Assembly (NCBI GenBank): GCA_049796515.1
Contig: JBAREU010000222.1
Location: 1 to 49,490 of the forward strand
Direction: 5' to 3'
Origin: Solirubrobacterales bacterium
GTDB lineage: Bacteria > Actinomycetota > Thermoleophilia > Solirubrobacterales > 70-9
DNA length: 49,490 bases
Part shown: piece by piece, positions 6,888 to 33,520 of the stretch
How the letters are laid out: the number at the start of each line of letters is the position of its first letter
How positions within the stretch are numbered: the first letter of the stretch is position 1
Translations under genes and position numbers: made by a program
Notes under the pieces: generated by a model
Told to the model about the DNA's origin: nothing
The model's input: only the letters and a program-made list of their open reading frames with translations
The model's database searches: none

Positions 6888-7382
6888 TCAGCGAGCAGCC
6901 TGGCGCACCGCACGGGAGCTTCGTGCGTATTCGAGCGAGACGGCGAAGCCGACGAGATCGGCCCCGACTTGGTCGAAGCCCAGCGCACGAGCGGCTGCAT
7001 GGGTCAGATCCCAGGCATTGCCGAGGCTGTAGGGGCCGCGATCGATCACCCTGGTGACGATCGCGCGGCCGCGGTAGATGAACCTCACCGCGGTACCGCA
7101 CGGCAGGTTGCGGTGGGCGACGCCGAGGGTCTGCGGGCGCAGCACCTGACCGCAGGCGGTGCTGTTGCCGTAGAGGCCAGGGCCGTACCAGGTCGCGCCA
7201 GCCCAGCGCAGCGGCGCGAAGGCGAGGTCGCTGCCGGTGCTGGCTTCGCTCGCGGCGAGCGTCGAGGCACCGCCGGTGGCTGCCTGGGCAGGCGTGGCGC
7301 CGAGCGCAAGCGTCGCTGCGACCAACAGCAGGGCCGCTTGGAAATGATCTTTCCGCCAGGGGCGGTTCGCGTCTCGCTTCAT
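6888..7382 (-). CDS. RlpA-like double-psi beta-barrel (DPBB) domain secreted cell-wall protein
   Basis: Signal peptide AALLLVAATLALGATPAQA. Motif block ATWYGPGLYGNSTACGQVL...LPCGTAVRFIYRGRAIVTRVIDRGP is typical of the RlpA/3D-type DPBB fold. Confidence 0.75.
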   Translation of the reverse strand: MKRDANRPWRKDHFQAALLLVAATLALGATPAQAATGGASTLAASEASTGSDLAFAPLRWAGATWYGPGLYGNSTACGQVLRPQTLGVAHRNLPCGTAVRFIYRGRAIVTRVIDRGPYSLGNAWDLTHAAARALGFDQVGADLVGFAVSLEYARSSRAVRQAAR

Positions 7383-7387
7383 GCTCT

Positions 7388-7510
7388 TTCGAAGCGCTTA
7401 CGGGGTTAGCTGACGGACTCGCGCTGAAAGAGCTGCGCTACGCGGCAGATGCCGGCGATTCGCCCCAACTCGTGGGTCCCCCGCTCTCCGCGGTATGTAG
7501 GCGGAGATTC
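7388..7510 (-). promoter_or_regulatory. c-di-AMP riboswitch (ydaO/yuaA class) in the leader of the RlpA-like gene
   Basis: The minus strand reads ...GAGAGCGGGGGACCCACGAGTTGGGGCGAATCGCC...GAGTCCGTCAGCTAACCCCGTAAGCGCTTCGAAAGAGC-ATG. The blocks AGCGGGGGACCCA, GGGGYGAAUC and UCCGUCAGCUAACCYCGUAAGCG match my recollection of the conserved ydaO cores. The element abuts the start codon. Confidence 0.8.
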
Positions 7511-7565
7511 AGCAGAAGTTGGCGGCACGTTAGCAAACGCTAAGACAGAAAAATGTGGAGAGGTT

Positions 7566-7598
7566 GAGAAGGCCCCCGCGGTACGAGGGGGCCTTCTC
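7566..7598 (-). terminator. Hairpin immediately 3' of RNase P RNA
   Basis: GAGAAGGCCCCC-GCGGTACGA-GGGGGCCTTCTC, a 12-bp perfect stem. A T-run (CACATTTTTCTG) follows on the minus strand about 12 nt downstream. Confidence 0.55.
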
Positions 7599-7970
7599 TC
7601 AGCGGGCCTGTAAGCCGGATCCTGTCGTGAGCGACCATCTATCTCACCGGAACCGCAGTCCCGGGGGCCGCCGAAGCGGCCTGCGGCCTACCTGGATCTC
7701 GCCGGGCAGGGTCGACGATCCTGTTTGGCCTTGCACCGGGCGGGGTTTGCCTGGCCGCCGCGTCACCGCGGCGCCGGTGCGCTCTTACCGCACCATTTCA
7801 CCTTTGCCTGTACGCGGCTCACGTGTGGCCGCGCCATCGGCCGTGTGTTTCTGTGGCACTTTCCCGCGGGTTTCCCCGGGTGGGCGTTACCCACCGCCCT
7901 CGCCCTGTGGTGTCCGGACTTTCCTCGAGGGGTTTTCTCTCCCCCCGCAGTCGCTCGGCCCGCTCCCCGA
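7599..7970 (-). ncRNA. rnpB: RNase P RNA, bacterial type A
   Basis: The minus strand contains the universal P4 core GAGGAAAGTCCGGAC (rc of 7913-7927) and the 3' signature ACAGGATCCGGCTTACAGGCCCGCT. P1 pairs between AGCGGGCC (5') and GGCCCGCT (3'). Ends are approximate, within about 5 nt. Confidence 0.9.
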
Positions 7971-8025
7971 TGGTAGCGCGCACCAGGCACGCTCGCGACA
8001 ATTGCATCGAATACCCTGCCCAACC

Positions 8026-8850
8026 ATGCCAGTTGCGGTCGTCACCGGAGCGGGCGGTGGGCTCGGGCGTGCGATCGCGCTCGATCTCGCCAGCCGCGGC
8101 TACCTGATCCAGGCAACCGACGTCGACGCCGAAGCCGCGGCCGCGACGGCGGCTGAGATCGGTGCGGGAGCCACGGCGTCGGAGCTCGACGTCAGCGACG
8201 GCGAGGCATGTCGCGCCACTGCAGCCGCGGCCACGACGCGTGGTGGATCGCTCGACCTCTGGGTGAACAACGCCGGCGTCCTCGTCACTGGCCAATCCTG
8301 GGAGCAGAACGAAGCGACGCGCAAGACGATGCTCGACGTCAACGCGCTCGGCACGATGAACGGCACCATCGCCGCCCTGGAGAAGATGCTGCCCGCAGGC
8401 CGCGGTCACGTGGTCAACGTGATCTCGCTGGCCGGCCTGGTGGCGGCGCCGGGGGAGGTCAGCTACTCGGCCAGCAAGCACGCGGCGATGGCCTTCACCA
8501 TCGGCACCCTCTTCGACCTGCGCCGCTCCGGCGTGTCCGGCGTGCAGCTCTCGGCCGTCTGCCCGGACGGCATCTGGACGCCGATGCTCGAAGACAAACT
8601 CGACGACCCGGCGGCGGCGGGGTCCTTCTCCGGTCAACTGCTCACCCCCGGGGAGGTGGCGATCGAGGTCGGCAAGCTAACCGAACGGCCGCGGCCGCTA
8701 CTCGTGCTGCCCCGCTGGCGCGGCCCTGTGCTGCGCCTCTTCGACATCTTCCCCCGCTTCGCCCTACGTCTCCTGCCCCTGGTGATGCGCGACGCACGGC
8801 GCCGCCAGCGCCGCTACAAACGCCTCATCGAATCCGGCCGCTGGCCCTGA
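8026..8850 (+). CDS. Short-chain dehydrogenase/reductase (SDR) family oxidoreductase
   Basis: Starts at the internal ATG 8026 (MPVAVVTGAGGGLGRAIAL, TGxxxGxG Rossmann motif). Catalytic YSASK is present. The upstream part of the 7555 ORF overlaps rnpB and is rejected. Confidence 0.85.
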   Translation: MPVAVVTGAGGGLGRAIALDLASRGYLIQATDVDAEAAAATAAEIGAGATASELDVSDGEACRATAAAATTRGGSLDLWVNNAGVLVTGQSWEQNEATRKTMLDVNALGTMNGTIAALEKMLPAGRGHVVNVISLAGLVAAPGEVSYSASKHAAMAFTIGTLFDLRRSGVSGVQLSAVCPDGIWTPMLEDKLDDPAAAGSFSGQLLTPGEVAIEVGKLTERPRPLLVLPRWRGPVLRLFDIFPRFALRLLPLVMRDARRRQRRYKRLIESGRWP

Positions 8851-8871
8851 CGCGACCCAGGGTCGCGTCAG
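8847..8871. terminator. Bidirectional hairpin between the SDR gene and lexA, embedding both stop codons
   Basis: CTGACGCGAC-CCAGG-GTCGCGTCAG, a 10-bp perfect stem. It overlaps TGA 8848-8850 (+) and the lexA stop at 8868-8870 (-). Confidence 0.5.
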
Positions 8872-9485
8872 GAAACCTTTCGCACAACCCCGATAACCCG
8901 GCCGAGAACGGAGACCTCGGCGCTGCGGATCGGCTCCATGCTGTCGTTCTCGGGCTGCAGGCGGATGTGGTCGGATTCGCGGAAGAAGCGCTTGACGGTC
9001 GCATCGTCGCCGAGCAAAGCGACGACGATCTCGCCGTCAGTCGCATCCTCGGTGGGCCGGACCACGACGTAGTCGCCGCCGAAGATTCCGGCTTCCTTCA
9101 TGCTTTCGCCACGCACCCGGAGGACGTAGTCGCCCTCCTCGCCGCCGATCACGTCGGGGATCTCGATGTATTCCTCGATGTTCTCCTCGGCGAGGATCGG
9201 TGCGCCGGCGGCGACATGGCCGACCAGCGGCAGCCCAGAGCCCTCGGGCAGGATCGTCTTCTTCGCCCTGTCGAAGAGCAGCTCGATCGCCCGCGGCTTC
9301 GCGGGATCGCGGCGCAGCAAGCCAATCTTCTCCAGATTGGCGAGATGGGCGTGCACAGTCGAAGAGGAGTGAAGGCCGACGGCTTTGCCGATCTCGCGCA
9401 CAGTCGGCGGGTAGCCGGTCTTGGCCGCATAGCGGCGGATGAAGTCGAAGATCTCCTTCTGCCTCTTGGTCAGGTCCAAGTCCAC
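8868..9485 (-). CDS. lexA: LexA repressor (SOS regulator, S24 peptidase)
   Basis: LTKRQKEIFDFIRRYAAKTGYPPTVREIG wHTH, AG cleavage region VAAGAPILAEE, and catalytic RGESM...KRF. The preferred start is GTG 9485, about 8 nt downstream of GAGGAGGA. The ORF-track start at 9572 would overlap the SOS box. Confidence 0.9.
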   Translation of the reverse strand: MDLDLTKRQKEIFDFIRRYAAKTGYPPTVREIGKAVGLHSSSTVHAHLANLEKIGLLRRDPAKPRAIELLFDRAKKTILPEGSGLPLVGHVAAGAPILAEENIEEYIEIPDVIGGEEGDYVLRVRGESMKEAGIFGGDYVVVRPTEDATDGEIVVALLGDDATVKRFFRESDHIRLQPENDSMEPIRSAEVSVLGRVIGVVRKVS

Positions 9486-9522
9486 CAAGCGATCCTCCTC
9501 ATCAGCAAACAAGCGCAGACGT

Positions 9523-9538
9523 TCGAACACTTGTTCGC
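9523..9538. promoter_or_regulatory. SOS box (actinobacterial/Gram-positive type TCGAAC-N4-GTTCGN) upstream of lexA
   Basis: TCGAACACTTGTTCGC lies about 40 nt upstream of the proposed lexA start. It matches the TCGAAC-N4-GTTCGA consensus at 11 of 12 positions. Confidence 0.75.
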
Positions 9539-9636
9539 AGACTAGCGCCCCTCCCGGACGGGCGCAAGCCAAAGCCCCAACCGCAATAGACGCCCCGCCC
9601 CACCGCCGCCAACCATCTAGAATCGGCGACCCTCGA

Positions 9637-9722
9637 GCGGCTGTGGCGGAACTGGTAGACGCGCAAGGTTGAGGGCCTTGTGCCCCTAACGGGGCGTGGA
9701 GGTTCGACTCCTCTCAGCCGCA
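9637..9722 (+). tRNA. tRNA-Leu (anticodon GAG), class II with long variable arm; no encoded CCA
   Basis: Acceptor GCGGCTG/CAGCCGC, anticodon stem CAAGG/CCTTG with loop TTGAGGG, variable arm GCCCC-TAAC-GGGGC, T arm GGAGG-TTCGACT-CCTCT, discriminator A. Confidence 0.9.
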
Positions 9723-9744
9723 TAAGAAGCTCCTGCAAAGAGGA
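9669..9744 (+). repeat. att core, copy 1 of a perfect 76-bp direct repeat (anticodon loop to 22 nt past the tRNA 3' end)
   Basis: Base-for-base identical to 22828-22903. Confidence 0.9.
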
Positions 9745-9968
9745 ACGTTTCGAGCAAAACCAGGCATCGCCCGCCGTACTGAGTCGCGGTCCATTGCGGA
9801 CCATTTCGGCAGCAATGGGACGTACCTCGGCTTCTCTACGGAGTGCCCCAGGCGTGGACGGGAGGTTCCCCCGCGCAGGAGAAGACCGCCGGTTTTGTTC
9901 CGATGAACCCCACAATGCGGCTGGAAGGAACTCAAATCCCCCCCGTGAGGCACGCGAAAGGAGGAGGA

Positions 9969-11222
9969 ATGAGAGAAGCGACGAGGCGCGCGCATGGGAC
10001 GGGCACCCTCTATGCCCAAAGGAGGGCGAACGGCCGCGAGGTCTGGTACGGCCGCTGGTATCTGGGCGAACGCCGGGTCAACCGCCGTCTGGGGCCAAAG
10101 CGCCGGCGCGGAACCGGCCACGGCCTGAACCGCACCCAGGCCGAGGCCGAGCTGCGCCGCCTGATGGTTCGCGAGCGACCGCCGGCGAGGGGCTCGACCT
10201 TGCCGTTTTCGAGCGTCGTGGAGCTGATGCTCCGCGATCTCGAAGCGCTCGAACGCAAGCCGACCACCCTCGACAACTACCAGGCGATTCTCCGCGCCCA
10301 CCTCCTGCCGCGATTCGGCGAGCTTTCCGTCAACCGTGTGAGGAAGAAAGATGTCGAGGAGTTCATGGCCGCTCTGACGCAGGCCGGACTGGCGGCGCGC
10401 ACGCGCTCGGGCATCTTCAAGCTGCTCTCTCAGGTCTTCAACTTCGCCGTGCGCCACGGCTGGTGCGAGGAGAACCCGTGCCGCTCGGTGCGCCGCCCGC
10501 GGGTTCGGGAGTGCTCGGAGATACGGTTCCTGAACCAGCAGGAGCTCGACGCCCTGATCGCGTCGATCGACGTATCCGCAGTGCCCTTCGGGTCCGCCGA
10601 CCGGGCGATCTTCCTCACCGCCGCGATGACCGGCATGCGCCAAGGGGAGCTGCTCGCGCTGCGCTGGCGCGACGTCGACTGGCAGGCGAAGCGAATCCGG
10701 GTCCGCCGCAACTACACCCGAGGGCACTGGTCGACGCCGAAGTCGCGCAGCGGCGAACGCTCGGTTCCGCTTTCGAGCAAGGTCGAAGCGGAGCTGAGGG
10801 CCCATCTGGGGCGATCTCGGTTCGCGGGCGAGGACGACCTGGTCTTCGCCAACCCGCTGAGCGGCGAAGTGCTTCCCCACGGCCCACTCGTGCGTCGCTT
10901 CAAGAAGGCGCTGAAGGCGGCCGGCGTACGGCAGGTCCGCTTCCACGATCTGCGCCACACCTTCGGGACCAGGATCGCCGCCGCCGGAGTGCCGATGCGA
11001 GTCCTGCAGGCGTGGATGGGCCACCGCGACTACCGGACCACCCTGATCTATGCCGACTACGAACCAGGGGACGAAGAGAGCGGACTCGTAGATGCCGCCT
11101 TCTCCAGCCCCCTCAGGCAGAAGGTAAATCCCCGCTTCCGGATCAGCTGGCGCCTTTCGCAACTGAGGGACTCATTGGCAACCGGCAGGAGAGAGCCGGG
11201 ACCTGCGATACCCCACCCCTGA
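9969..11222 (+). CDS. Tyrosine recombinase / phage-type integrase (island 1)
   Basis: ATG 9969 is preceded by AAAGGAGGAGGA. C-terminal catalytic motifs are TGMRQGELLALRWRDVD, FHDLRHTF and WMGHRDYRTTLIYADY. The upstream extension to 9843 is rejected. Confidence 0.9.
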   Translation: MREATRRAHGTGTLYAQRRANGREVWYGRWYLGERRVNRRLGPKRRRGTGHGLNRTQAEAELRRLMVRERPPARGSTLPFSSVVELMLRDLEALERKPTTLDNYQAILRAHLLPRFGELSVNRVRKKDVEEFMAALTQAGLAARTRSGIFKLLSQVFNFAVRHGWCEENPCRSVRRPRVRECSEIRFLNQQELDALIASIDVSAVPFGSADRAIFLTAAMTGMRQGELLALRWRDVDWQAKRIRVRRNYTRGHWSTPKSRSGERSVPLSSKVEAELRAHLGRSRFAGEDDLVFANPLSGEVLPHGPLVRRFKKALKAAGVRQVRFHDLRHTFGTRIAAAGVPMRVLQAWMGHRDYRTTLIYADYEPGDEESGLVDAAFSSPLRQKVNPRFRISWRLSQLRDSLATGRREPGPAIPHP

Positions 11223-11386
11223 CCCGTCCGGCGACCCGCCACATCTTGATCTCCGGCGACTGAGCGACTCTCGTTACTTAGATGGCTCGGGCGCCCCCGA
11301 CACGAATTGCGCCATCAAGTGAATTCATATGCTCCCAAGGAGGCTTGCGAATCCGACGCCGAGAACTGGCATTACGTAGCCGAGCA

Positions 11387-14185
11387 TCAGCGTTCGCGCA
11401 ATGCCTCGGCGGCCGCGTCTCTGACTGCCGCCGAGCGATGCTGGCCTAGACGCAGAAGAGCTGGCTTGATTTGATCACTCCGCCACTCCACGCCGACCAG
11501 CGCCATCGCTAACGCGAGCGGAACGCTCCTGCCCGGATCGCTGAGACAGGCTTCAAAGGCACCCGTGAATCCACCACCCTCCTCGCCGGCGGCGATCAGG
11601 TGGGCGACCCCACCTGCGGCAGTAGCCCGGACCCGGGGGTCGCCGTCCCGGGTGAGCGCAATAAGGACGCCTTTGTGCTCTGCGCTGGGGAGTTGGGCTG
11701 CGAGAAGTGCCGCGTAGTTGCGTTCCTGACCATCGCCACCGAGCAACTTCACAAGTCGAGGATCGGGGTTCTCCAGGGCACCGAGCGATGCGGCAAGCAC
11801 CGTTCCCGAAGCCATCAGGTCGCAGTCGTGACTCAGTTCGAAAGGACTCGGTTCGATCTCGCCGGCGCTCATCGCACCGGCGATCGAGGCGAGTCGCCCG
11901 GCTATCTCATCTGAGATCTGCGCTCCCCGCCAGGCGAGGGTGAGCAACGCCCCGCGTTTCAGCCTGACCGGAACGGCGGGCTCAGCCAGCAGTTCGAGCA
12001 GCGGATCCCAGGCTGCGAAGTCGGGGTGCCAGGCGTTAAGAGTGGCGAGATCCCGAGCGAGATCACCGGCGCCGATTCCCACCGAGCCGCCCCTCGCGTC
12101 CTCGATGATCTTCCTTGCTCGTTCTCCGAGCTCCTTCGTGGCCGCTCGCGCCACGCCCTCTGGAAGCTCGCGGGCTGCCCCCAGCCCCCAGAGCCCGTCA
12201 ACGCGGCCGGCTTCGGCCTCTGCCACGAGCTGCTCGCGGGCCTGCTCATCCCCGTAGCGCGCCGCAGATCCGACCAGGATCCGCCCCAGCGAGCCCCCAT
12301 GGCGCTCGCTCGCCTCGCGGGCTGCGCTGGCCAAGGAGTCGTCCCAAGTGCCGGCCGACACAGCGCTGACCACTCTCGACCAGGCGTCTTCGACCAACTG
12401 GTTCTCCCCAAGCGGATCGAGCTCGAGCACACGCTCCAAGACGTGGCGCTGGGTCTCCTTCTCGGTGGCCGCGGTGATGCCCGCCAAGGCATCCACCAGC
12501 TGCAAGTCCACCAGGTAGTGCGGTGAAGTCCTGGCAACGAACTCCCCCGGGTCCTCGATCGCCTGCAGTAGCCAGGAGGCCAGCCGCTCGGCCGCCTCGG
12601 GGTCGGCAAGATCACCGCCGAGCTCGACGAAGGTCAGGTCGGAAAGCGCGGTGGTGCGGGTGGAGAGCTCGGGCCGAACTCCAGCCAGAGCTACCGTAAT
12701 CGCCTCGCAGGGGCCTTGTGCGCGAACGTGAGGCAGGGCGAGCTTAAGACCCTTCTCATCGCCGGCGACCCTCAGCGTGGTTAGGCCAGAGGCGAGGGCC
12801 TCGGGATCAGCGTCTTTGCCGAGGCGGTGCAGTTCGTCGCGCCCGACAAGCGCACAAAGGCCGCGCCAGCCGGCTTGGTCGCCGCAGTGGCTCGCCTCGA
12901 CCGCTGCTGCGAAGAGTCGGTTGTGGGCATCGTCTTCGCTGCTCCACTTCATGCGCGGGTCGTGAGCCCAGTCGTCCTCGAAGCTGCGCTCGAAGACATC
13001 GGCCAGCCCGTTCCTGACCGTTTGGGATCGCCACCAGCCCGTCGGGGTGTCGGTGGCCTTGATCAGCTCCCGAAAATCTCGGTCTTCCCAATGGGAGAGA
13101 TTGAAGACCAGTGCGACAGCCGATGCAGCGATCGCGGTGGCGGTGACGTCTTTGCGCGCCAAAGAGGGTAGGTTCGCGAGCCCCTCCGCCTCAGCCTTAG
13201 CCTCCTCGCGCCTCCCAAGCTCGGCGAGCGCTCGGGCACGCTGGAGCCGAAGCCAAGCGTCATCGACCGTGGCCGCCTCGTCGCGTTCGATCTCTGCTTC
13301 CAGAACCGCCAATGCATCCTCGGGCCTGCCGGCGCCGGTCGCCAGGCTTGCCAGGGCGACCGCTGCGACCACGCGCTCCTCACTTCGCTCGGTTTCGCGC
13401 AGGACCTCTCGCAGGGGGACGTCCTCGTTCTCCCACATCCTCCTCCAGAAGGCGCCCACGAAGCGCCACCTCCATTGCGCATCCTCCAGAGCGGCATCCA
13501 GACCCGGGACCTCCTCCTGCTCTTCGGCATAGCGGTTCAGCTCGGTGATCCGCATCTGGGCCACCATCGCCAGCGCCTGCTCTGGCGTCAGGCTGCCCGA
13601 GCCCAGGTTGGGATGAGGAGCGATCAGCCGTGGCGCCAGCAAGGCGAACCGGAGCCTGTCGGGCGGAGGGATCTCCAGGTCGCCGCCCCAACTTCCTTCT
13701 AGCGAGGGCACCGAGCCGAAGCTCGCCGCCACCGCCAGCAGGTCCTCCTGATGCTCGGCGTCGACGGTCTGCGAGGCTGGAACGAAGATTTTCGACCCTT
13801 TGCCGGTGGAGCGGATCGCCGAGGGCGTGACGTGCTCCCAATAGGTGTCGTGCGTCTCCTCGTTATGGAGGACGATGAGCTGGGGAGCCAGGAGTCGTGC
13901 CCAGTTGCCTAGCTCGGTGTCGTCGTCATCGACATACCACCAACCGGTCACCTCCCCGCTCTCGTCCCTCTTGGGCCTCTTGAAGTAGCTGCGGTCCCCG
14001 GTTTTGACCTGAACGCCCATGTACATGCCGAGCTCGAAGCGGCGCTCATCGCGGGGGGAGGCGACGAAGTCGGTGCCGTTGTCGTGATCTGGGTTAGGCA
14101 TGACCGCCCAACCGAGGTACTCGAACTTCGACCTGACCTCGCTCTGTCCGCCCGATCCCTTCGCCTCGGTCTCTCCTGCCCGCAT
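11387..14185 (-). CDS. Large DUF4365 (PD-(D/E)xK-like nuclease) N-terminal domain protein with long TPR/HEAT-like helical-repeat body
   Basis: The N-terminus SEVRSKFEYLGWAVMPNPDHDNGTDFVA...MGVQVKTG fits the DUF4365 pattern. The rest is all-alpha with HEAT-like ends (DPRVRATAAGGVAHL, SAAVRDAAAEALRE). No P-loop was seen. The start could instead be TTG 14305. Confidence 0.55.
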   Translation of the reverse strand: MRAGETEAKGSGGQSEVRSKFEYLGWAVMPNPDHDNGTDFVASPRDERRFELGMYMGVQVKTGDRSYFKRPKRDESGEVTGWWYVDDDDTELGNWARLLAPQLIVLHNEETHDTYWEHVTPSAIRSTGKGSKIFVPASQTVDAEHQEDLLAVAASFGSVPSLEGSWGGDLEIPPPDRLRFALLAPRLIAPHPNLGSGSLTPEQALAMVAQMRITELNRYAEEQEEVPGLDAALEDAQWRWRFVGAFWRRMWENEDVPLREVLRETERSEERVVAAVALASLATGAGRPEDALAVLEAEIERDEAATVDDAWLRLQRARALAELGRREEAKAEAEGLANLPSLARKDVTATAIAASAVALVFNLSHWEDRDFRELIKATDTPTGWWRSQTVRNGLADVFERSFEDDWAHDPRMKWSSEDDAHNRLFAAAVEASHCGDQAGWRGLCALVGRDELHRLGKDADPEALASGLTTLRVAGDEKGLKLALPHVRAQGPCEAITVALAGVRPELSTRTTALSDLTFVELGGDLADPEAAERLASWLLQAIEDPGEFVARTSPHYLVDLQLVDALAGITAATEKETQRHVLERVLELDPLGENQLVEDAWSRVVSAVSAGTWDDSLASAAREASERHGGSLGRILVGSAARYGDEQAREQLVAEAEAGRVDGLWGLGAARELPEGVARAATKELGERARKIIEDARGGSVGIGAGDLARDLATLNAWHPDFAAWDPLLELLAEPAVPVRLKRGALLTLAWRGAQISDEIAGRLASIAGAMSAGEIEPSPFELSHDCDLMASGTVLAASLGALENPDPRLVKLLGGDGQERNYAALLAAQLPSAEHKGVLIALTRDGDPRVRATAAGGVAHLIAAGEEGGGFTGAFEACLSDPGRSVPLALAMALVGVEWRSDQIKPALLRLGQHRSAAVRDAAAEALRER

Positions 14186-14242
14186 GGGCTCAGTGAAGCA
14201 ACAATCACCGTCCGAGTGGGGCGGCGTGGAAAATGGCAACCG

Positions 14243-16057
14243 ATGGAGGGAACGCCAGCGAATTTCAGCTTCTCCCGGGCTGTGCGCGAGTGGTGCTTCG
14301 TCCAACTGCCCCTGCTCGACGTCGCCAAGTTCCGCAAGGAGGCGAAAGCACGCGGCCTCTCAGACCTCGGCCTCTTCGATCGCGATCCCTGGGAGACGCT
14401 CGATCGGGAGGAGCTTCTCGTCCCAGTCGCCTACGCCCGTCATGGGATGTGGCACTACGACATGCTCGGCTGCCTGGCAGACGGGGACCTTGCGGTGCGC
14501 GAGGAGGTCGGCTACCGGCCCTGGGCCCAGCTGGCCGAGGAAGCAGAGGCCATCGGCCAGGATGCCGTGCCGCAGGTCCTTTACCACCACTGGCAGCTCT
14601 TCTGGCTGGCGGATTTGCAGGACTACCTGAGGCCGGCGGTGGCGTGGAGTCGGCTGGGTAAAGGGCTCGACGATTTCTATGAGGCCCGGGCAAAGATCGC
14701 CGCCGCACCGAATCCGCTCCCGCTGGCGGAGCTGCGGGCCGCGGCGGAGCGATGGCGGAGAATGGAGCTCCTGCTGGTGCGGGTGCAGAACGCCTTCTAT
14801 CCGAGCCAGCGAGGCGGGCCGGGACGGACCCGCTGGAGCGGCGGGGTGATACCCGGCTTGACCGAGGACGCAGCCGAGTGGGCGATCGAACAGGCGCGAA
14901 CGCTCGACTACGAAGCCCTGGCGGCTGAGTGCGGCGTCGATGCCGGGCAACTCGAGAAGGACTACGAACAGCTCGTCTACGCCGGTCTCCACATCGACCC
15001 TGCCTGCGGCCTGCTCGAGCTTCTCGACCAGGTCTCCAGGCAAAGCCGCGAGCGCCTGCGGGGCGACGCCCTACGTGCCCTCGACTTCTACGACGCGGCG
15101 CGCATCCTGCGTGATTGGCACCAGCGCCTGACCGGCGGCGACCCTCTCCCCGACGTCGACGAGTACCGGGGGGTGAACGGCACCGAGGTGAAGTTGCGCC
15201 GCTATGGAACGCGCGACGTCCGCGGCAACCACGCCGTCCTTCCGATCCTCCTGGAGGAACACGGCCTCTATCCGTGGCGGGTGCAGCTGATCGGTGAGGG
15301 AGCTTCTGAGATCGCCGCCTTGCGGCTGATCCTTAAGGAGGGCTATGGGTTCTCCTTCGAGAAGCTGGGGATTGCCGTCACGGACATGGGAGGCTCGGAG
15401 ATACCCAGTAACGCCGAGCTGCTGCTTACGTCCTTCCGCGGCTATGCCAACTACTTCCTGCTTGTCTTCGACAATGAGGGGCGGGCGGAAGAGCTGATTC
15501 AGACGCTGGTGCGGGCCGAAGTGATCGAGGGCACGGGCGAGAAGCAGCGCAAGGCGATCCGCGAAGAAGCGGCTCGCGCTGCGAAGCAGATCGAAGATCC
15601 GGAGGCACGGCGCACCGCCCTGCGAGCCGCATTGGACGCTGCCAATTCCCTGAGCCAGGCGCCGGGCACCGCACCAGAGTTCGTCCTATGGAAGGACAAC
15701 TTCGAGGCCGACAACTTCGCCATCGGCGAGCTGTGTCGTGTGGCGGAGCAGTTCGCAGCCGAGATCGGGCTTGAGGGCTTTGTCTTGGATTCCGACGCGC
15801 TTCATGCCGATCTCGAGGGGGGCCAGCAAGAAGGAGAGACAAAAGGCATAGCGTCCCTCGTACTGGACCAAGCCGCCGAGAAAGACTCACGGTTCTACCT
15901 CTCCAAGCCGGAATTCGCAGAGAGGCTTGCCCTCTTTGCGCTCGAGAACCCCGAGCCGCAGGAGGGCAAGCGCCGACCCATTCTTGAACTCGCAGAACAC
16001 CTCGTGCAACTCACCTGGGCAGATCGTCGTCTCGCCGGCATGTTGCGTCGCTCCTAA
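14243..16057 (+). CDS. Hypothetical protein with C-terminal Toprim/OLD-like domain
   Basis: The C-terminal half has VQLIGEGASEIAAL (EG-x-x-E), VTDMGGSE and LLVFDNEG (DxD-like) in Toprim order. The N-terminal half is unrecognised. The start is uncertain (ATG 14243 chosen, ORF open from 14084). Confidence 0.45.
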   Translation: MEGTPANFSFSRAVREWCFVQLPLLDVAKFRKEAKARGLSDLGLFDRDPWETLDREELLVPVAYARHGMWHYDMLGCLADGDLAVREEVGYRPWAQLAEEAEAIGQDAVPQVLYHHWQLFWLADLQDYLRPAVAWSRLGKGLDDFYEARAKIAAAPNPLPLAELRAAAERWRRMELLLVRVQNAFYPSQRGGPGRTRWSGGVIPGLTEDAAEWAIEQARTLDYEALAAECGVDAGQLEKDYEQLVYAGLHIDPACGLLELLDQVSRQSRERLRGDALRALDFYDAARILRDWHQRLTGGDPLPDVDEYRGVNGTEVKLRRYGTRDVRGNHAVLPILLEEHGLYPWRVQLIGEGASEIAALRLILKEGYGFSFEKLGIAVTDMGGSEIPSNAELLLTSFRGYANYFLLVFDNEGRAEELIQTLVRAEVIEGTGEKQRKAIREEAARAAKQIEDPEARRTALRAALDAANSLSQAPGTAPEFVLWKDNFEADNFAIGELCRVAEQFAAEIGLEGFVLDSDALHADLEGGQQEGETKGIASLVLDQAAEKDSRFYLSKPEFAERLALFALENPEPQEGKRRPILELAEHLVQLTWADRRLAGMLRRS

Positions 16058-16122
16058 CGGGCCCCTGCTGCTCACGGCAACCCCCAGTCCGATGCGCAAC
16101 GCCTCACGGTGCCTGAGAGTTC

Positions 16123-17244
16123 TTACCGCGGCAGGTCCTGCCACGCCTCCAGGCCAGCCGCGCGGGCAAGCTCGTTGACGGCTTGATGAGCAACCTCAGA
16201 AAGCTCGTCTTTGTCGGGCGGGAGAGTCACCTCAATGCCGATTTGGATGTGATCGCTGGGCACCAATCCACTGCCAGCGCGTTGATGCGTAAGCCCGACT
16301 CCCTCAAAGCCCCGAACCAAGACATGGCCAATTGCCCGTCCCTGTGCTCCGAGCCCTCGAAAGAGCTTGGCAGCGGCAACGAGCAACAACCCGATCGTCT
16401 CTTCGAGCAACTCGGGCCGAATCGTGGTCGACTGAGCATCGGGGAACTCAATCCGGGTGGCGAGGATCCCCCCTGCATCGGCGATCACCGAAGTTCGTCC
16501 CTCCATCCCCACTTGCGTGGTCGTGAACGTAAACCCGCGCTGGTCAAATCTGCCCTCGCTCACCCGATGGGCAGGATTGGGTGGAGTCGGAGCGTCGAAT
16601 AACTCCCGCGAGGCCTCCCGTGCTTCACGTCCAAACTGGATCGCTAGGAGTCGGTCGGCGAATCCCTCCGGTCGGGTGAGGGGAGCGAGCCGAACGACGA
16701 ACTGGCGAGGGACAGGCGTCAGGTCGAGGGTTTTCGTTTCGCGGGGGGCGGGCTCGATCTGGCTTAGGGCATAGGGCAGGGAGTGCAGACGCTCGCGAGC
16801 ATCGCGGCGTGCCTGCTCGCCGCGCTTCGCCAACTCCAACAACTCGGCGTGCGACTGAATGCGACGCAGCCCGCCTGGCTCTCGAATCGGAACCGAGCCG
16901 TCGCCAATCACGATGTGAGGCGTGTCGGCTGACTCGAGCACCCTGATCACCCCGATATTTACACCGTCGAGCTCGCGGACATCCGCCGCAAACGGCGGGA
17001 GGGGATCAACCTGGCGGCTCACTTTATGGCGGAGCTTGTCGGTGAAGTCTCCCGCCCCCGGCTCATAGCCTTTAAGTACACCCTCATCAGCGACACCCAC
17101 CAGAAGCCAACCGCCCAGGGTGTTCGCAAAGGACGCCATCGCGGGCCCGAAACCGCCCTTCGGCTCTTGCTGCTTTCGCTCGACAAAGAGAGACTCCCCC
17201 TCAGCGACAAGGCGGCGAAGTGACTCCTCATCGAGGTCTGCCAT
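16123..17244 (-). CDS. AlbA_2 / Schlafen-like DNA-binding domain protein
   Basis: The N-terminus ESLFVERKQQ...MASFANTLGGWLLVGVADEGVLKGY matches the AlbA_2 (divergent AAA/Schlafen) signature. About 200 C-terminal aa are unassigned. The start is taken at ATG 17244. Confidence 0.6.
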   Translation of the reverse strand: MADLDEESLRRLVAEGESLFVERKQQEPKGGFGPAMASFANTLGGWLLVGVADEGVLKGYEPGAGDFTDKLRHKVSRQVDPLPPFAADVRELDGVNIGVIRVLESADTPHIVIGDGSVPIREPGGLRRIQSHAELLELAKRGEQARRDARERLHSLPYALSQIEPAPRETKTLDLTPVPRQFVVRLAPLTRPEGFADRLLAIQFGREAREASRELFDAPTPPNPAHRVSEGRFDQRGFTFTTTQVGMEGRTSVIADAGGILATRIEFPDAQSTTIRPELLEETIGLLLVAAAKLFRGLGAQGRAIGHVLVRGFEGVGLTHQRAGSGLVPSDHIQIGIEVTLPPDKDELSEVAHQAVNELARAAGLEAWQDLPR

Positions 17245-17350
17245 CGACAGTCGGCGAAAGCTCACGTCCGTCACCACCCGAGCATTCCAGAATGGGTGGT
17301 TCGACGACTCCGAAGGGAGGATGAAACGGCGACTGGAGGCGATCAGGTGG

Positions 17351-18379
17351 TCAGATCTGTAGCGGCGGCTCCCGCGAGCCCGTCGGATCAACCAGACCGA
17401 GCAGGATATCGTCGGAGCCCTGAAAGTGGTCGATGAAACGCCCGAGATCCCAGCACTGCCACTCCGGCGCCACTTCTGCGCCTCGGACTTGTTCGCGTAG
17501 GCACGACATCACAGCTCCCGAGAGGACATCTGCCAACTGCACTGCGACGCATTCGCGCGAGTCGACCGTTTCGATCTCCTCTCTGTAAAGCGGGTACTCG
17601 AAGTGGACTTCGCCAACGTCGAAAGCGGCGGGTTCGATCTCTCGGCTCGAGAAACGCAGCAACAACTCGTGCCAGCGCCGAACGACATTCGAGTCATCGT
17701 GGATGACCCGGAACGGCTCGCGAAGGCGCTGGGACCAGTGGTGCAGTTGCTCGACGAGACCCGTCAGCGCCGGCTCGAGCGCATCCCTTCCAGCGTCCAC
17801 GAGCTCGGCGAGCGAGGCCGCCTCATCCGGGACGGGCTCGAAGAGGATCCCGACGGGCTGGCCCGCCGCAGAGACCTTCACCGCAGCGCGGGCACTAACC
17901 AGCTCGGTGATCCGCTCCTCTCGCTCGGGTCGGCGCACGGCGGCAATAAATGCCTCCTGCCAACGCCTCCAGATCTTCTCGCCCGCCTCCTCGGGCCCTT
18001 GACGCTGCAGGACAGAGGCGATTTGGCGGTGCATGCCCGAGGCGTAGAAGTGGTGGGTGCTCGCCGTGGCGGGCTCCCAAAGAAGATCGACCATCTTTCC
18101 GGCGACCATCCAGTCCTTATCGACGGGGACGACGCGGGCGCTCTGGGGGTCCAACAGTCCCGACTCGAAGATCTCCGCCAGGATTTGCCGTCCCATCCGG
18201 CTCGTCCGCAACCGGGAGAACTTGAGCTCGGCGTAGGAGGTGCCGTCGAGCAGCGCGGAGACTGGACCAGCCACCTCCACCTCCGGTCGCGCCACCGAGG
18301 CCAGGGTGCAGATCGGCTGAGTAGGGTCAAGGAGGTTCTCGCCGCTGTTGCCACTCTCGTTGAAGGCGACCTCGATCAT
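17351..18379 (-). CDS. DUF3800-like protein
   Basis: N-terminal IEVAFNESGNSGE (DESG-like) and C-terminal VQLADVLSGAV motifs in the DUF3800 arrangement. Confidence 0.5.
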   Translation of the reverse strand: MIEVAFNESGNSGENLLDPTQPICTLASVARPEVEVAGPVSALLDGTSYAELKFSRLRTSRMGRQILAEIFESGLLDPQSARVVPVDKDWMVAGKMVDLLWEPATASTHHFYASGMHRQIASVLQRQGPEEAGEKIWRRWQEAFIAAVRRPEREERITELVSARAAVKVSAAGQPVGILFEPVPDEAASLAELVDAGRDALEPALTGLVEQLHHWSQRLREPFRVIHDDSNVVRRWHELLLRFSSREIEPAAFDVGEVHFEYPLYREEIETVDSRECVAVQLADVLSGAVMSCLREQVRGAEVAPEWQCWDLGRFIDHFQGSDDILLGLVDPTGSREPPLQI

Positions 18380-18710: not shown

Positions 18711-19844
18711 GTGTTCGCTATGACGTTGACCCTGATCGGCGCGGTGGCGCTCACCCTGGTGCTGGTCGCGGCGGTGCGGCTTCTCGTCACCGCCAAGAGC
18801 CCTGACGATAGTCGAGCTCAGTTCGGCCGACCGCTGCTGGTCGGGGCGATCGTCGGATTGACCTTCATGCCGGCTCAGGCGGCGATCCAAGCGGAGCTCC
18901 GCAGTCAGGACGAGGACCTGCAGGAGAGGGTCGCCGCAGACGCCGAGCGGCGCGATCTGCTCCTACAGCTGACCCTGCGCAGCGAGCTCCCGGGTATCGA
19001 CCTGCGCGGCGAGGATCTGTCCGGAGCCTACATGTACAGGAAGAACCTCTCCGGGGCCAACCTGCGGGGGGTCGACCTGCGCAACGCCAATCTCGCCTAC
19101 GTCGACCTCCGCAGTGCCGACCTCAGCCACGCCCGCTTCGCCGGCGCCAATCTCACCGGCGCGCGGTTCGAGGGAGCGACCCTGAAGAGGACCTCGTTCG
19201 TCGGCGCTGACCTGCGGCGGGCGAAGTTCAGCATGTACAGGTGGCCGGTCGACCCCAACATTGACCTGCTGCTGGAAGAGCCCCATATGGTGTTTCGGGC
19301 GGAGGCGGCCGCCGGTCCGCCGGCCGACTTCTCCAAGGCTGTGCTCCACTACGCCACCTTCGAGAAGGTGGATTTCAGCCACGCCCGCTTCGTCGGGGCC
19401 GACCTGACCCAGGCCAAGTTCACCGACGCCATCCTCCACGGCGCCGACTTCGACCGCACGAACCAAGCTCCCGACTTCCTGAGCCGGGTGGATCTCTGCC
19501 GCGCGTCGTTCCGCGGCGCGCACGTCGACTACGGCTATTACGACGAAGTCAGCCTCCGCAACGCTGACCTCGAAGGCGCCCGGATGGAAGGCAACTTCGA
19601 CGAGGTCGACTTCCGGGGCGCGAACACCGCGGGCCTCCAGACGACGCTTCCGGAGGAAGCACTGGACGGCTGGGCCGTGGTGCAGACCCGTGGCGCGGCG
19701 GAGCTGAGCCCGGCTCTCGCCGCCGCCCTGGGCGCCGTCTCCCGCCGCCCCGTTCCCGCGGACGAATGCCACATGGTCTTCTTCCGAAACCAGCTCCGCC
19801 CCCTGGCCTCCGAGCTTCCCGACCGAAGGTTCTTCGGTTCATGA
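18711..19844 (+). CDS. Membrane-anchored pentapeptide-repeat protein
   Basis: N-terminal TM LTLIGAVALTLVLVAAV, followed by many A(D/N)LxG-type pentapeptide units (ANLRGVDLRNANLAYVDLRSADLSHARFAGANLTGARFEGA...). Confidence 0.8.
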   Translation: MFAMTLTLIGAVALTLVLVAAVRLLVTAKSPDDSRAQFGRPLLVGAIVGLTFMPAQAAIQAELRSQDEDLQERVAADAERRDLLLQLTLRSELPGIDLRGEDLSGAYMYRKNLSGANLRGVDLRNANLAYVDLRSADLSHARFAGANLTGARFEGATLKRTSFVGADLRRAKFSMYRWPVDPNIDLLLEEPHMVFRAEAAAGPPADFSKAVLHYATFEKVDFSHARFVGADLTQAKFTDAILHGADFDRTNQAPDFLSRVDLCRASFRGAHVDYGYYDEVSLRNADLEGARMEGNFDEVDFRGANTAGLQTTLPEEALDGWAVVQTRGAAELSPALAAALGAVSRRPVPADECHMVFFRNQLRPLASELPDRRFFGS

Positions 19845-22827: not shown

Positions 22828-22903
22828 TTGAGGGCCTTGTGCCCCTAACGGGGCGTGGAGGTTCGACTCCTCTCAGCCGCATAAGAAGCTCCTGCAAAGA
22901 GGA
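22828..22903 (+). repeat. att core, copy 2 of the 76-bp direct repeat (3' tRNA-Leu half without a 5' half)
   Basis: Identical to 9669-9744. The upstream sequence does not form a tRNA 5' half. Confidence 0.9.
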
Positions 22904-23134
22904 GCACTTCGATCAAAACCACGAATTTCGGCACTGCTGCCCTGTGGTCCATTGCGGACCGTTTTGGCAGCAATGCCGCACACCTGGGCCGCACCACGAG
23001 AGTGCCCAGGCGTGAGCAATGCGTTTGCTCACGCAGGGGAAGACCGCCGGTTTTGTGCCCGAGGAGCGCGTCGATGCGGCTGTCCGGAGCCCGGAATCCA
23101 TCCCTCCGCCAGGGGGCATGTCTAAGGAGGAACA

Positions 23135-24439
23135 ATGGATGACAAAGCCAGTATGCGCCGCCCGCACGGGACCGGCACCCTTTATGTCCAAGCGAGAGCG
23201 AACGGCCGAGAGGTCTGGTACGGACGCTGGTATCTGGGCGGCCGGCGGGTCAACCGTCGCCTCGGTCCCAAGCTGCACCGCGGCGCTGGAAAGGGGCTGA
23301 ACCGCACCCAGGCCGAGGCCGAGCTACGTCGGCTAATGGTTCGCGAGCGCCCACCCGAGGCCGGCGCGAGCATCTCCTTTGCGAGCACCGCGGAATTGAT
23401 GCTCCGCGAACTCGAATCACTCGGGCGCAAGGCGACGACGCTCGACAACTACCGGGCGATCCTTCGCGCTCACCTGCTGCCTCGCTTCGGCGAGCTCATG
23501 GTCAACCGGGTTAGGAAAAGTGACGTCGAAAGCTTCATGACCAAGCTCACCGCGGCCGGCAAGGCAGAGAGGACGCGCTCGGGCATCTTCAAGCTCCTCT
23601 CACAGGTCTTTACCTTCGCCGAGCGCCAGGGTTGGTGCGAGCAGAATCCGTGTCGCTCCGTGCGGGGGCCCAGGGTGCGGGAATGCTCAGAGATCCGGTA
23701 CCTCAGCCAACCGGATTTCGAGGCGCTGATCGCCGCGGTCGACGTCTTCGAGGAACCCTTCGGATCGACTGACGGGGCGATCTTCCTGACCGCGGCGATG
23801 ACCGGGATGCGCCAGGGAGAGCTCCTCGCACTGCGCTGGCGGGACGTCGACTGGGAGGCGGAACGGATCCGCGTGCGCCGTAACTACACTCGCGGTCACT
23901 GGTCGACGCCGAAGTCGCGCAGCGGCGAACGCTCAACGCCTCTTGCGAGCCGAGTCGCGGACGAGCTGCGAGCCCATCAGCTGCGCTCCCGATTTTCGGG
24001 CGAGGACGACCTCGTCTTCGCCAATCCGCTGAGCGGCGAGGTGCTCCCCCACGGCCCGCTTGTACGGCGGTTCAGGAAGGCGCTGAAGGCCGCGGGCGTG
24101 CGCAGGGTCCGCTTCCATGACCTCCGCCACACCTTCGGCACGAGGATGGCCGCTTCTCCCGACGTGCCGATGCGCAAGGTCCAGGAGTGGATGGGGCACC
24201 GCGACTACCGGACGACGCTGCTTTATGCCGACTACGAACCTGGAGGCAGGGAGAGTGCCCTGGTGGACGCGGCCTTCGCGAGCAAGCCTCCGGCAGACCG
24301 GGGAGAGCGGATCCGAACTCGCATCAACCAGCGCCTGTTGCGCTTGCGGAAATCCTCCCTGCTCGGCGGGGTTAGTCGAAGCCAGCGACTCCGAGCCCGA
24401 CACGTTCGCCAGCCCGACCGAGGTCCCGATCCCAGGTGA
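23135..24439 (+). CDS. Tyrosine recombinase / phage-type integrase (island 2)
   Basis: ATG 23135 follows TAAGGAGG. It is collinear and, by eye, about four-fifths identical to the island 1 integrase (same RHR-Y motifs). The C-terminal tail overlaps the convergent vapC by 68 nt. Confidence 0.9.
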   Translation: MDDKASMRRPHGTGTLYVQARANGREVWYGRWYLGGRRVNRRLGPKLHRGAGKGLNRTQAEAELRRLMVRERPPEAGASISFASTAELMLRELESLGRKATTLDNYRAILRAHLLPRFGELMVNRVRKSDVESFMTKLTAAGKAERTRSGIFKLLSQVFTFAERQGWCEQNPCRSVRGPRVRECSEIRYLSQPDFEALIAAVDVFEEPFGSTDGAIFLTAAMTGMRQGELLALRWRDVDWEAERIRVRRNYTRGHWSTPKSRSGERSTPLASRVADELRAHQLRSRFSGEDDLVFANPLSGEVLPHGPLVRRFRKALKAAGVRRVRFHDLRHTFGTRMAASPDVPMRKVQEWMGHRDYRTTLLYADYEPGGRESALVDAAFASKPPADRGERIRTRINQRLLRLRKSSLLGGVSRSQRLRARHVRQPDRGPDPR

Positions 24440-24794
24440 CCAGGACGACTTCCGGGTCGCCGAGTTCGAGCGCGGTGGCGAGGTGGACCGCGTCATATCC
24501 ACGCAGTCCCATGCTTTCGGCGTGCTCGCCAGCGCGAGCTGCAAGTTCCTGGTCGACGCCGACCGTGACCAACTCCCCGTAAAGCTGCTCGAAGACCGCA
24601 AGTGCATCTCGGTGCTCGTCCTCCCCCAGCCGGTCCAGCCGTCGAGCGGCCGCGAGGGCAGCACGGCCCTCCGGATAGGCGAGGACGCTCGACACCGCGG
24701 GATAAGCGCTCCCCCAGAGCTCAGCCGCCAACTCAGAACCGTCCTCGACGACGACCAGCTTGACCAGCGCCGAGGTGTCGAAGTAGAAGATCAG
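24372..24794 (-). CDS. vapC: PIN-domain toxin VapC; apparent non-canonical CTG start
   Basis: The translation LIFYFDTSALVKLVVVEDGSELAAELWG...YDAVHLATAL has the PIN acidic residues. No ATG/GTG/TTG exists in frame between the upstream stop and the first PIN Asp. CTG overlaps the antitoxin stop (CTGA). Confidence 0.7.
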   Translation of the reverse strand: MIFYFDTSALVKLVVVEDGSELAAELWGSAYPAVSSVLAYPEGRAALAAARRLDRLGEDEHRDALAVFEQLYGELVTVGVDQELAARAGEHAESMGLRGYDAVHLATALELGDPEVVLVTWDRDLGRAGERVGLGVAGFD

Positions 24795-25069
24795 GCCCGC
24801 TGCTCGGAGACGAGGCCGGAGACCGATCCGGTGCCCTTCACCTGCGCCGATCGAGAAGGGCGCTTCCCCTGTGGCATCCGCACCAGGCCACGGCGCGCGA
24901 GAGCATCAAGCGGCCGCTCACCGAGCCCACTCAGGCGTGCCACGGGGCGTCCGCGGCGGGTGACGACGATCTCGCCTCCCCTCTCCACTCGCTCCAGGTA
25001 CTCGCTGAGGCGATCGTGGAGCTCACGGACTCCAACTTCGCTCTCGGGCTGATGTAGCGTCATACCCAC
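24791..25069 (-). CDS. Phd/YefM-family antitoxin
   Basis: VGVRELHDRLSEYLERVERGGEIVVTRRGRPVARL is a typical Phd/YefM N-terminal domain. It overlaps vapC by 4 nt. Confidence 0.75.
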   Translation of the reverse strand: MGMTLHQPESEVGVRELHDRLSEYLERVERGGEIVVTRRGRPVARLSGLGERPLDALARRGLVRMPQGKRPSRSAQVKGTGSVSGLVSEQRA

Positions 25070-25174
25070 AGGCTAGCAGCTACATACGCGGCGAACTAAA
25101 TCCGACCTAGGTCTTGCGGAGCACCTCGACGCAAGAAAGCTCCGCACCCTGCCCCGGCCCTCGAGAAATCGCTC

Positions 25175-27578: not shown

Positions 27579-27660
27579 CTGATCCTTGACACTCACGACT
27601 CGCCCCTTTCCACTCGGTCTGTCTAGCGCCAGCAACCAGCCGGACTCATGATGGTCGGTA

Positions 27661-28035: not shown

Positions 28036-28044
28036 TTGGCGACC

Positions 28045-28479: not shown

Positions 28480-28494
28480 AGACCCTCCCCGCGT

Positions 28495-31623: not shown

Positions 31624-31785
31624 ACGGCCCGACGATACTTAGGGACAAGGCACGTGGGTGAACCAGCGCAACCGCCGGGAGCCCGGGACTCGCCGGTGAC
31701 GCAACGCGAGATGACATGCCTCGCAACAGAGAGACTCATGAACTCCGGGGTCGTTTCGGTTGACCTGACGCTGGCTGGCCGCAGC

Positions 31786-33432: not shown

Positions 33433-33520
33433 TAGACGAAAGCCTACCGAGCGGTGATGCAAGGGACGGGTCGAAGCTCGGCTTGGCTGAGTCGGACTGT
33501 CGCGCCCACCAAAACAGCAG

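Follow-up and report, generated by a model that had tools for sequence, protein, structure and literature searches.

Two candidate immune nucleases, a DREN-solenoid protein and an ATPase-less OLD-type Toprim protein, in a divergent cassette of Solirubrobacterales

Introduction

In SPARDA, the isolated DREN nuclease is described as monomeric and inactive, with filament-driven tetramerisation activating its collateral cleavage (PMC12205087), and in DSR2, composed of a SIR2 domain, a MID domain and an alpha-solenoid C-terminal domain, the solenoid is described as binding the phage tail tube protein, which activates the system (PMC11850899, PMC11263360). OLD-type Toprim nucleases are in turn described as normally acting with a partner, be it GajB, AriA or a retron reverse transcriptase (RT). 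Class 1 and class 2 OLD proteins and GajA are reported to cut DNA and AriB to cut tRNA, while a 2026 preprint describes tRNA cleavage by P2 Old. Here, we analysed a 49,490-nucleotide (nt) stretch of DNA from a Solirubrobacterales bacterium (assembly GCA_049796515.1, contig JBAREU010000222.1; hereafter the window, with a GC content of ~65%), which carries two divergently transcribed genes, A and B, encoding a putative DREN-type nuclease with a long helical solenoid and a putative OLD-type Toprim nuclease devoid of an ATPase domain, respectively.

In the titles and abstracts listed, the Toprim/OLD defence literature names only AriB, retron Eco2 and MAD3-MAD4 as ATPase-less Toprim effectors, and the DUF4365 literature comprises work on SPARDA and prokaryotic Argonautes (pAgo) plus "Divona", a DUF4365+crr6 integron cassette. 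Neither a DUF4365-solenoid protein nor the architecture of B was found described in these titles and abstracts.

Layout of the A and B genes

On balance, we lean towards the view that A and B each encode a self-sufficient immune nuclease acting as a single protein, that the two tend towards linkage and that they form a tight divergent cassette in this lineage. Their homologues are carried by metagenome-assembled genomes (MAGs) of Solirubrobacterales and other Thermoleophilia. The cassette is laid out as follows (lengths in amino acids, aa, or base pairs, bp):

11387..14185, minus strand: gene A, DREN/DUF4365 nuclease with TPR and HEAT solenoid, 932 aa (alignment, Pfam, fold searches)
14186..14242, no strand: divergent spacer between the start codons of A and B, 57 bp (start-codon alignment)
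14243..16057, plus strand: gene B, OLD-type Toprim nuclease devoid of an ATPase and preceded by a new N-terminal domain, 604 aa (alignment, fold searches)

Both open reading frames (ORFs) were confirmed at the positions given by the initial annotation, through ORF calls as well as homologue-aligned starts. The maximal ORFs (11387..14305 on the minus strand, 972 aa, for A and 14084..16057 on the plus strand, 657 aa, for B) overlap. Homologue alignment set the start of A at the ATG at 14185 (homologues of 916-953 aa, every one starting with MRA or MRG) and that of B at the ATG at 14243 (close homologues of 598-604 aa). In the related divergent locus L024 the spacer measures 58 bp, and the block TCAGTnAAGCAnCAATC is kept between this locus and the window. 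The 57-bp spacer contains only one weak inverted repeat, and a search of 11200-16300 revealed neither a sigma-70-type promoter consensus nor that of an intrinsic terminator. The GC content at third codon positions (GC3) of A and B (0.77 and 0.78) is below that of the core genes at the window ends (0.87-0.93).

PADLOC v2, NCBIfam and PHROGs contain no whole-protein model for A or B. Together with Pfam, these collections yielded only DUF4365, HEAT and a weak TPR match for A, and only a sub-threshold OLD-like_TOPRIM match for B. PADLOC, run on both proteins, returned no whole-protein match: A matched an Argonaute-associated model in its REase part alone and B matched nothing, in line with the earlier statement that no named defence system fits the locus.

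Protein A

The following regions make up A, in order of residue number:

13706..14185, minus strand: A residues 1-160, PD-(D/E)xK nuclease head of the DREN type (Pfam, alignment, Foldseek, VIA)
12638..13672, minus strand: A residues 172-516, TPR-like helical region (VIA, alignment)
11390..12637, minus strand: A residues 517-932, HEAT/ARM-type solenoid (profile against the PDB, VIA)

Residues 13-151 match the Pfam family DUF4365 (PF14280) at 70.4 bits against a cut-off of 24.3 (E-value (E) 2.1e-19), with further Pfam matches to HEAT at residues 879-930 and, weakly, to TPR at residues 259-333. An AlphaFold2 (AF2) model built on 20 homologues reached a predicted local distance difference test (pLDDT) score of 86.2 and a predicted template modelling (pTM) score of 0.77. 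The PD-(D/E)xK fold spans residues 5-158, for which VIA returned I-Ssp6803I (Z 9.9, root-mean-square deviation (rmsd) 3.2, 121 aligned residues) and Hjc (Z 9.6). Moreover, Foldseek matched the head to the DREN chains of three SPARDA structures (9qcc_M, 9vx6_T and 9jt2_B) at 20-22% identity, supporting the nuclease call. No variation occurs at D35, G37, D39, Q59, V60 or K61 among the 20 aligned homologues, down to 30% identity, and the motif pattern suggests that D35, D39, Q59 and K61 are the catalytic residues. Equally invariant (20/20) is the linker motif PRLIAPHPN at residues 185-193.

With residues 172-516, VIA returned DdvA (Z 11.7, rmsd 3.3, 197 aligned), phage phi105 Rap (Z 10.9) and MalT domain III (Z 9.9). 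The HEAT/ARM solenoid was seen by VIA from residue 443 to residue 932, including importin-beta at Z 11.6 over residues 463-908, although all these Z values fall in a range common for helical repeats and name a fold class, not a relative. A profile of the A family compared with the PDB matched alphaRep/PP2A-A HEAT (E 7.5e-17). No NTPase family was found in A by Pfam and no P-loop fold among the 50 best matches of each fold search (Foldseek and VIA), while the Walker A pattern is absent from both A and B. These searches bear out the original description of A as a DUF4365 nuclease with some 750 aa of helical repeats and no NTPase.

When four copies of the A head (residues 1-170) were co-folded, the prediction scored 0.83 against 0.09 for the best control, a mark that 20 of 30 solved pairs and 1 of 23 single chains attained. 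Contact agreement between runs was at least 72%, and the partner pLDDT at least 79. The predicted interfaces involve the helix at residues 10-25 and the strands at residues 27-57, and these are the elements named alpha1-alpha1 and beta1beta2-beta1beta2 in the available description of the SPARDA DREN tetramer (PMC12205087). The model thus supports self-association of the nuclease head through the same structural elements as in SPARDA, although the high score may stem from the likeness of the head to solved tetramers (SPARDA, I-Ssp6803I).

A accordingly shares with SPARDA the nuclease type of its N-terminal domain (DUF4365/DREN), and the A-family profile matches SPARDA structure 9qbq (E 2.3e-6) and the DREN-APAZ structure 9jsb (E 4e-6). 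Unlike SPARDA, however, A lacks APAZ, since the match to the PADLOC model Aga_REase-PNTD1-PNTD2 is confined to positions 7-145 of 429, and the DREN domain of A is joined to a TPR/HEAT solenoid of 770 residues instead. No Piwi family was found among the window genes nor in the whole 87%-complete assembly, so no Argonaute was found. A is built like DSR2, as one polypeptide without NTPase in which an effector at the N-terminus precedes a long alpha-solenoid, and presumably shares its sensor logic, but the effector of A is a DREN/DUF4365 nuclease and not a SIR2 NADase. DSR2 gave no sequence or fold match to A among the fold-search matches listed, making this an analogy and not a homology. Forms of Avs with a nuclease effector and a TPR sensor exist, and A resembles Avs and other STAND proteins in its nuclease head, repeat sensor and defence-island location, yet differs from them in having no STAND NTPase (neither a Walker A pattern nor a Pfam NTPase, nor a P-loop fold among the matches listed).

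Protein B

Two regions make up B:

14243..15262, plus strand: B residues 1-340, mostly helical N-terminal domain (AF2 block, pLDDT mostly 80-95)
15263..16054, plus strand: B residues 341-604, Toprim and helical domain of the OLD type (alignment, fold searches)

The match of B to the Pfam family OLD-like_TOPRIM (residues 349-394; E 0.0022, 19 bits) lies below the cut-off of 23.2 bits. All 28 aligned members of the B family, however, match it at E of at most 1 (best 7.7e-6), and 16 of 28 more distant representatives do so at E of at most 0.01, the scores of relatives rising above the cut-off. Using the AF2 model of B (pLDDT 83.4 overall), Foldseek on the C-terminal 260 residues gave class 2 OLD C-terminal regions as its top four matches (probability 1.00, template modelling (TM) score by target 0.53-0.56). 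VIA likewise ranked class 2 OLD first for the C-terminal region (residues 337-602), with 6njw at Z 10.4 (rmsd 5.3, 194 aligned) and 6nk8_B at Z 10.1 (184-194 residues aligned overall), followed by PH0156 (Z 9.3), Thermus OLD (8.4) and AriB (8v46_D, 8.0), and further down by GajA (7.6-7.8, with 8u7i_A at 7.6), retron Eco8 (6.8) and retron Eco2 (5.8-6.2). Together with the family-wide Pfam matches and the lack of a Walker A pattern, this upholds the initial view of an OLD/Toprim-like C-terminal half without ABC ATPase. Of the two motifs that had been read in it, EGxxE stands as GEGASE (residues 351-356), whereas the supposed DxD is really a DxE (D410-N-E412).

Residues E352, D410, E412, E479, E488 and K555 are the same in all 28 aligned B sequences, D490 is nearly invariant, and position 356 is occupied by E or D throughout. 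Going by order and spacing, not by superposition, E352 and E356 would correspond to E400 and E404 of Burkholderia (Bp) OLD, D410 and E412 to D455 and D457, E488 and D490 to T506 and E508, and K555 to K562 (Bp OLD numbering as given in the accessible part of PMC6755086). The conservation of this putative two-metal site argues for B being an active nuclease.

For the N-terminal domain, no Pfam family and no confident fold match was found with Pfam, VIA or ESM Atlas: VIA gave MerR-like rows only (Z 5.4-5.7 over 69-72 residues, within noise), and ESM Atlas scores stayed at or below 0.78 with TM values of at most 0.31. A phmmer search with this domain over 1.84 billion representatives yielded 144 clusters. 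Nearly all full-length matches were proteins of 520-640 aa in which the domain comes first, and a form fused to an ATPase was not seen among them, suggesting that the architecture of B is fixed. Matches of the B profile to TAL effectors in the PDB (E 1e-7) were rejected as spurious, because each stretch had an independent E (i-E) above 7 and the score was summed over repeats.

Two genomes, G055 and G290 (loci L117 and L118), carry ORFs of 139 and 152 aa that match only the first 60-100 residues of the N-terminal domain (E 1.9e-7 and 5.8e-7), and many short phmmer representatives likewise match only its start. Such ORFs may represent fragments; alternatively, a separate module may be formed by the first 100 residues. 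Two B homologues are themselves interrupted, with that of L001 (8001-9813) spread over two frames (residues 1-96 and 81-604) and that of L011 (7986-9793) split into two ORFs, each break being either a frameshift or a MAG assembly error.

B thus resembles class 2 OLD and GajA in its C-terminal fold and in having the same set of acidic residues plus lysine in the same order, but differs from them in its DNE in place of DxD and in the unrelated 340-residue helical domain that replaces the ABC ATPase half. Unlike in Gabija, no UvrD/GajB-like helicase gene flanks B, the nearest helicase gene (28495-31623) lying on a second island. Like PARIS AriB (Z 8.0, rmsd 5.1, 187 aligned) and retron Eco2, B is an OLD-type Toprim protein without an ATPase in its chain. 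Its N-terminal domain, however, is a different module from those of AriB and Eco2, and B is accompanied neither by a reverse transcriptase as in retron Eco2 nor by a nearby AriA-type ATPase gene as in PARIS. Pfam found no ATPase family in B or its window neighbours, and the AAA_21 matches of the genome are all on other contigs.

Co-occurrence of the A and B families

The linkage of the two families was examined from both sides. For B, this involved 14 genomic loci from one-genome-per-species contigs and, for A, 84 loci, i.e. the best 80 of 151 metagenome loci plus the four full-length homologues from a sample of 400 genomes of the order. The A-side screen used a B-family hidden Markov model (HMM) built from 125 proteins, which recovered distant B-like genes in locus L052 that tblastn with B alone had missed. 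An A-family gene was present at only one of the 14 B loci (L001, by tblastn and A-family HMM), which is near-identical to the window (A 94%, B ~95%). Conversely, the HMM detected a B-family gene at 3 of the 84 A loci. In the first of these (L024), A and B are divergent, as in the window, and 70% and 77.5% identical to the window proteins.

With more than 90% of each family solitary, and the partner family lacking at 13/14 B loci and 81/84 A loci, the pair is not an obligate two-gene system. Across the metagenome A loci, no neighbour cluster recurs at more than 6 of the 80, and the largest real cluster, present at 5 loci, contains integrases. The orientation of A and B differs in each independent case, being divergent, convergent or tandem. 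The gene pair as initially proposed therefore stands only in part, as synteny is lacking in most relatives (1/14 B loci, 3/84 A loci), while close relatives keep an exact A+B block in four contexts and two further, independent juxtapositions exist.

Several observations nevertheless weigh against the reading of A and B as two autonomous immune nucleases. The exact A+B block occurs in the window, in L001, in L024 and in a contig of run X7. A convergent arrangement was found in L052, with an intact but very distant B-like gene (OLD-like_TOPRIM E 2.7e-4), and a tandem one in L130 (genome G599), where A is intact and the B-like gene is cut to its first ~250 residues, the remainder being present in no frame. 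In L041, a classical OLD gene (AAA_21 plus Toprim) lies directly upstream of an A homologue, and in L006 a DUF4365+TPR protein unrelated to A is encoded two genes from the B homologue. Furthermore, flanking sequence of 1.9 kb or more is available upstream at only 42 of 80 A loci and downstream at 37 of 80, so the absences of a partner are only partly established. The N-terminal domain of B was searched for its fold within the full-length model, by which a known fold could be missed, and we claim no new fold for it. A defence role for A and B is, finally, one that we infer from genomic context and domain kinship.

The DUF4365+TPR protein of L006 had itself been considered as a distant relative of A, but was rejected as BLASTP matched the nuclease domain only (E 0.016) and the A-family HMM gave no match.

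Both families are rare. Full-length A had no match in 400 other genomes of the class and four in the 400 genomes of the order, and full-length B had none in the 400 other class genomes (3 partial matches), where DUF4365 (PF14280) as such had nine, including the unpublished genome G344. Given this rarity, adjacency of A- and B-family genes in three orientations is unlikely to be pure chance, and some linkage beyond chance is likely. The exact block, the independent adjacencies and the rarity of both families together argue for some functional or selective coupling that independent neighbours do not explain, and this excess linkage stays unexplained if A and B are autonomous genes.

The units of exchange were delimited by comparing contexts. 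The flanks of the four A+B contexts differ on one or both sides, the window and L001 sharing a SLFN_AlbA_2 gene and a 342-aa gene on the right. L024 and L001 share a single blastn match of 4679 bp (73% nt identity) that spans exactly B and A. The 13.9-kb X7 contig matches the window only over 11468-16057 (254 differences) and continues as unlike sequence on both sides, with the right break at the stop codon of B. No terminal repeats bounding the A+B block were found. By contrast, L052 and L050 have the A gene alone in common (81% nt identity over 2812 bp). Transfer thus concerns the whole A+B block in one clade, and only A in another.

A further observation concerns A alleles at one chromosomal site, adjoining Ppx/GppA and a thiamine pyrophosphate (TPP) enzyme, in genomes G602 (L129) and G599 (L130), which belong to two genera (~6989-9796 in each). 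The flanks are 78-79% identical at the nt level and the A genes barely alignable as DNA, i.e. very divergent alleles, and the B-like remnant is present on the other side of A in G599 only.

These data bear on a possible but less likely account, in which A and B form a genuine, facultative two-gene system of cooperating nucleases: contact between the solenoid of A and the N-terminal domain of B would license one of the nucleases, or the two would have complementary substrates, and the shared 57-bp region would co-regulate them. Persistence of the exact block down to 70%/77.5% protein identity amid differing flanks, the conserved spacer length (57 versus 58 bp) and sequence block, the independent adjacencies in L052 and G599, the classical OLD gene in L041, the rarity of both families (0/400 class genomes each at full length) and the partners with which OLD-type Toprim nucleases are described (GajB, AriA, a retron RT) all speak for such cooperation. 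It is opposed by the 13/14 B loci and 81/84 A loci that lack the partner family, by an orientation that differs in every independent case, unlike in a fixed operon, by the exchange of A alone between L052 and L050, and by the intact A gene beside a decayed B-like gene in G599.

More tentative still, and in our estimate rather doubtful, is the broader proposal of a recurrent, orientation-independent partnership between DREN-solenoid proteins of the A family and OLD-type Toprim nucleases, which would as such be a new two-nuclease immune module. The Toprim partner would then usually belong to the ATPase-less B family and in one case be a classical OLD protein; the solenoid protein would sense infection and either license the Toprim nuclease or be backed up by it; the N-terminal domain of B would be its docking or sensing part, and the 57-bp divergent cassette the most compact form of the module.

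Mobile and defence context

The A+B cassette lies in an element with the following features:

9637..9722, plus strand: tRNA-Leu (anticodon GAG), integration target of island 1 (ARAGORN)
9669..9767, plus strand: left copy of a 99-nt direct repeat (3' part of the tRNA and downstream sequence), att-like (repeat search)
9843..11222, plus strand: tyrosine integrase of island 1 (Pfam Phage_integrase, E 2.5e-31)
16123-17391, minus strand: SLFN_AlbA_2 gene
17351-18379, minus strand: 342-aa gene, phrog_12991 (E 8.8e-23)
22828..22926, plus strand: right copy of the direct repeat, where island 1 ends and a second, tandem island begins (repeat search)

The two copies of the repeat are 94% identical, and their core 25-mer (9698-9722) is exact at both sites and was present twice in none of 100 shuffles. 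The tRNA-Leu(GAG) adjoins lexA (8868-9572). Together, the tRNA, the integrase and the repeat copies place A and B within a 13.2-kb tRNA-integrated element, in agreement with the integrase island recognised at the outset. The SLFN_AlbA_2 and 342-aa genes, which overlap by 41 bp, accompany A+B in L001, and runs X2 and X6 contain A+B together with the SLFN_AlbA_2 gene and the 342-aa gene as well, but neither gene is found with the block in L024 or X7.

The loci of relatives are likewise rich in defence and mobility genes. Neighbours at the 13 other B loci encode HEPN_Apea, a Pycsar-type TIR, Abi_alpha, an Mrr-helicase (twice), DpnII, DUF4238 and ImmA/IrrE, as well as a relaxase and integrases, and those at A loci CHAT-STAND, PIN, OLD, HsdM/S/R, AbiTii, Shedu, GmrSD and zeta toxin, as well as integrases and transposases.

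An improbable alternative is that A and B are not anti-phage genes at all, but serve the mobile element (in addiction, exclusion of rivals, or DNA processing during integration or transfer) or are decaying cargo. Such a role would suit their location on an integrase element that also carries an excisionase-like HTH_17 gene, and the frequent position of relatives beside relaxases, type IV secretion system (T4SS) coupling proteins, recombinases and transposases. Both ORFs are intact, however, with the catalytic residues invariant across divergent relatives, and neighbours are dominated by recognised defence domains. Moreover, a scan of viral contigs for both families revealed no relative of A or B, and neither family was matched in PHROGs; excluding rival elements would in itself be a form of defence.

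A number of neighbouring genes were recorded besides. A Mrr_cat_2-ResIII-Helicase_C gene lies directly beside the B homologue in two unrelated loci, split and convergent with it in L006 (9907-12791), and whole and 30 bp downstream of it in L010 (9809-12880). SLFN_AlbA_2 genes were also seen within ~8 kb of A homologues in L046, L050/L051, L080, L081 and L096. A 377-aa pentapeptide-repeat protein (18711-19844) is further cargo of the 13.2-kb element.

The integrase of the second island (23135-24439) is related to the first (~80% nt identity). This tandem island (22828-33600) carries a SLOG cluster3 gene, a gene for a 394-aa ThsB-like TIR protein, two more ThsB_TIR genes, PIN_10 and a 1042-aa MkoC-like superfamily 1 (SF1) helicase gene, the one noted above as nearest to B. 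It looks like a Thoeris-like or Mokosh-like mix, and no single PADLOC system spans it. Further along, 38828-42436 encodes a 680-aa SIR2_2 protein (a weak PADLOC Aga_SIR2 match), followed by a 488-aa gene with an internal 300-nt direct repeat (41418-41717 versus 42045-42344, 71%).

Discussion

As two self-sufficient immune nucleases, the reading that we favour, A and B might operate as follows. By analogy with DSR2, the TPR and HEAT solenoid of A would act as the sensor and bind a phage or plasmid product. Binding would bring the N-terminal DREN heads together, and oligomerisation would switch the nuclease on, as in SPARDA, upon which the assembled heads would degrade nucleic acid indiscriminately and cause abortive infection. 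In B, the C-terminal half would be an OLD-type two-metal Toprim nuclease with a full catalytic set, regulated by the 340-residue N-terminal domain as a regulatory or sensing module in place of the ABC ATPase. Upon its trigger, B would cut DNA, as do class 1 and class 2 OLD and GajA, or tRNA, as does AriB.

The catalytic modules of both proteins have proven immune roles, DREN in SPARDA and the OLD-type Toprim in Gabija, PARIS, retrons and P2 Old, and each of them is here joined to a different, unstudied control module. If the proposed roles are true, A would be a case of a DREN nuclease under the control of a solenoid that senses proteins, rather than of an Argonaute filament, and B would reveal which kind of module can stand in for the ABC ATPase, the presumed regulator of OLD nucleases. 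Should the linkage of A and B reflect cooperation, it would constitute a new two-nuclease system and a tractable case of synergy between defence genes.

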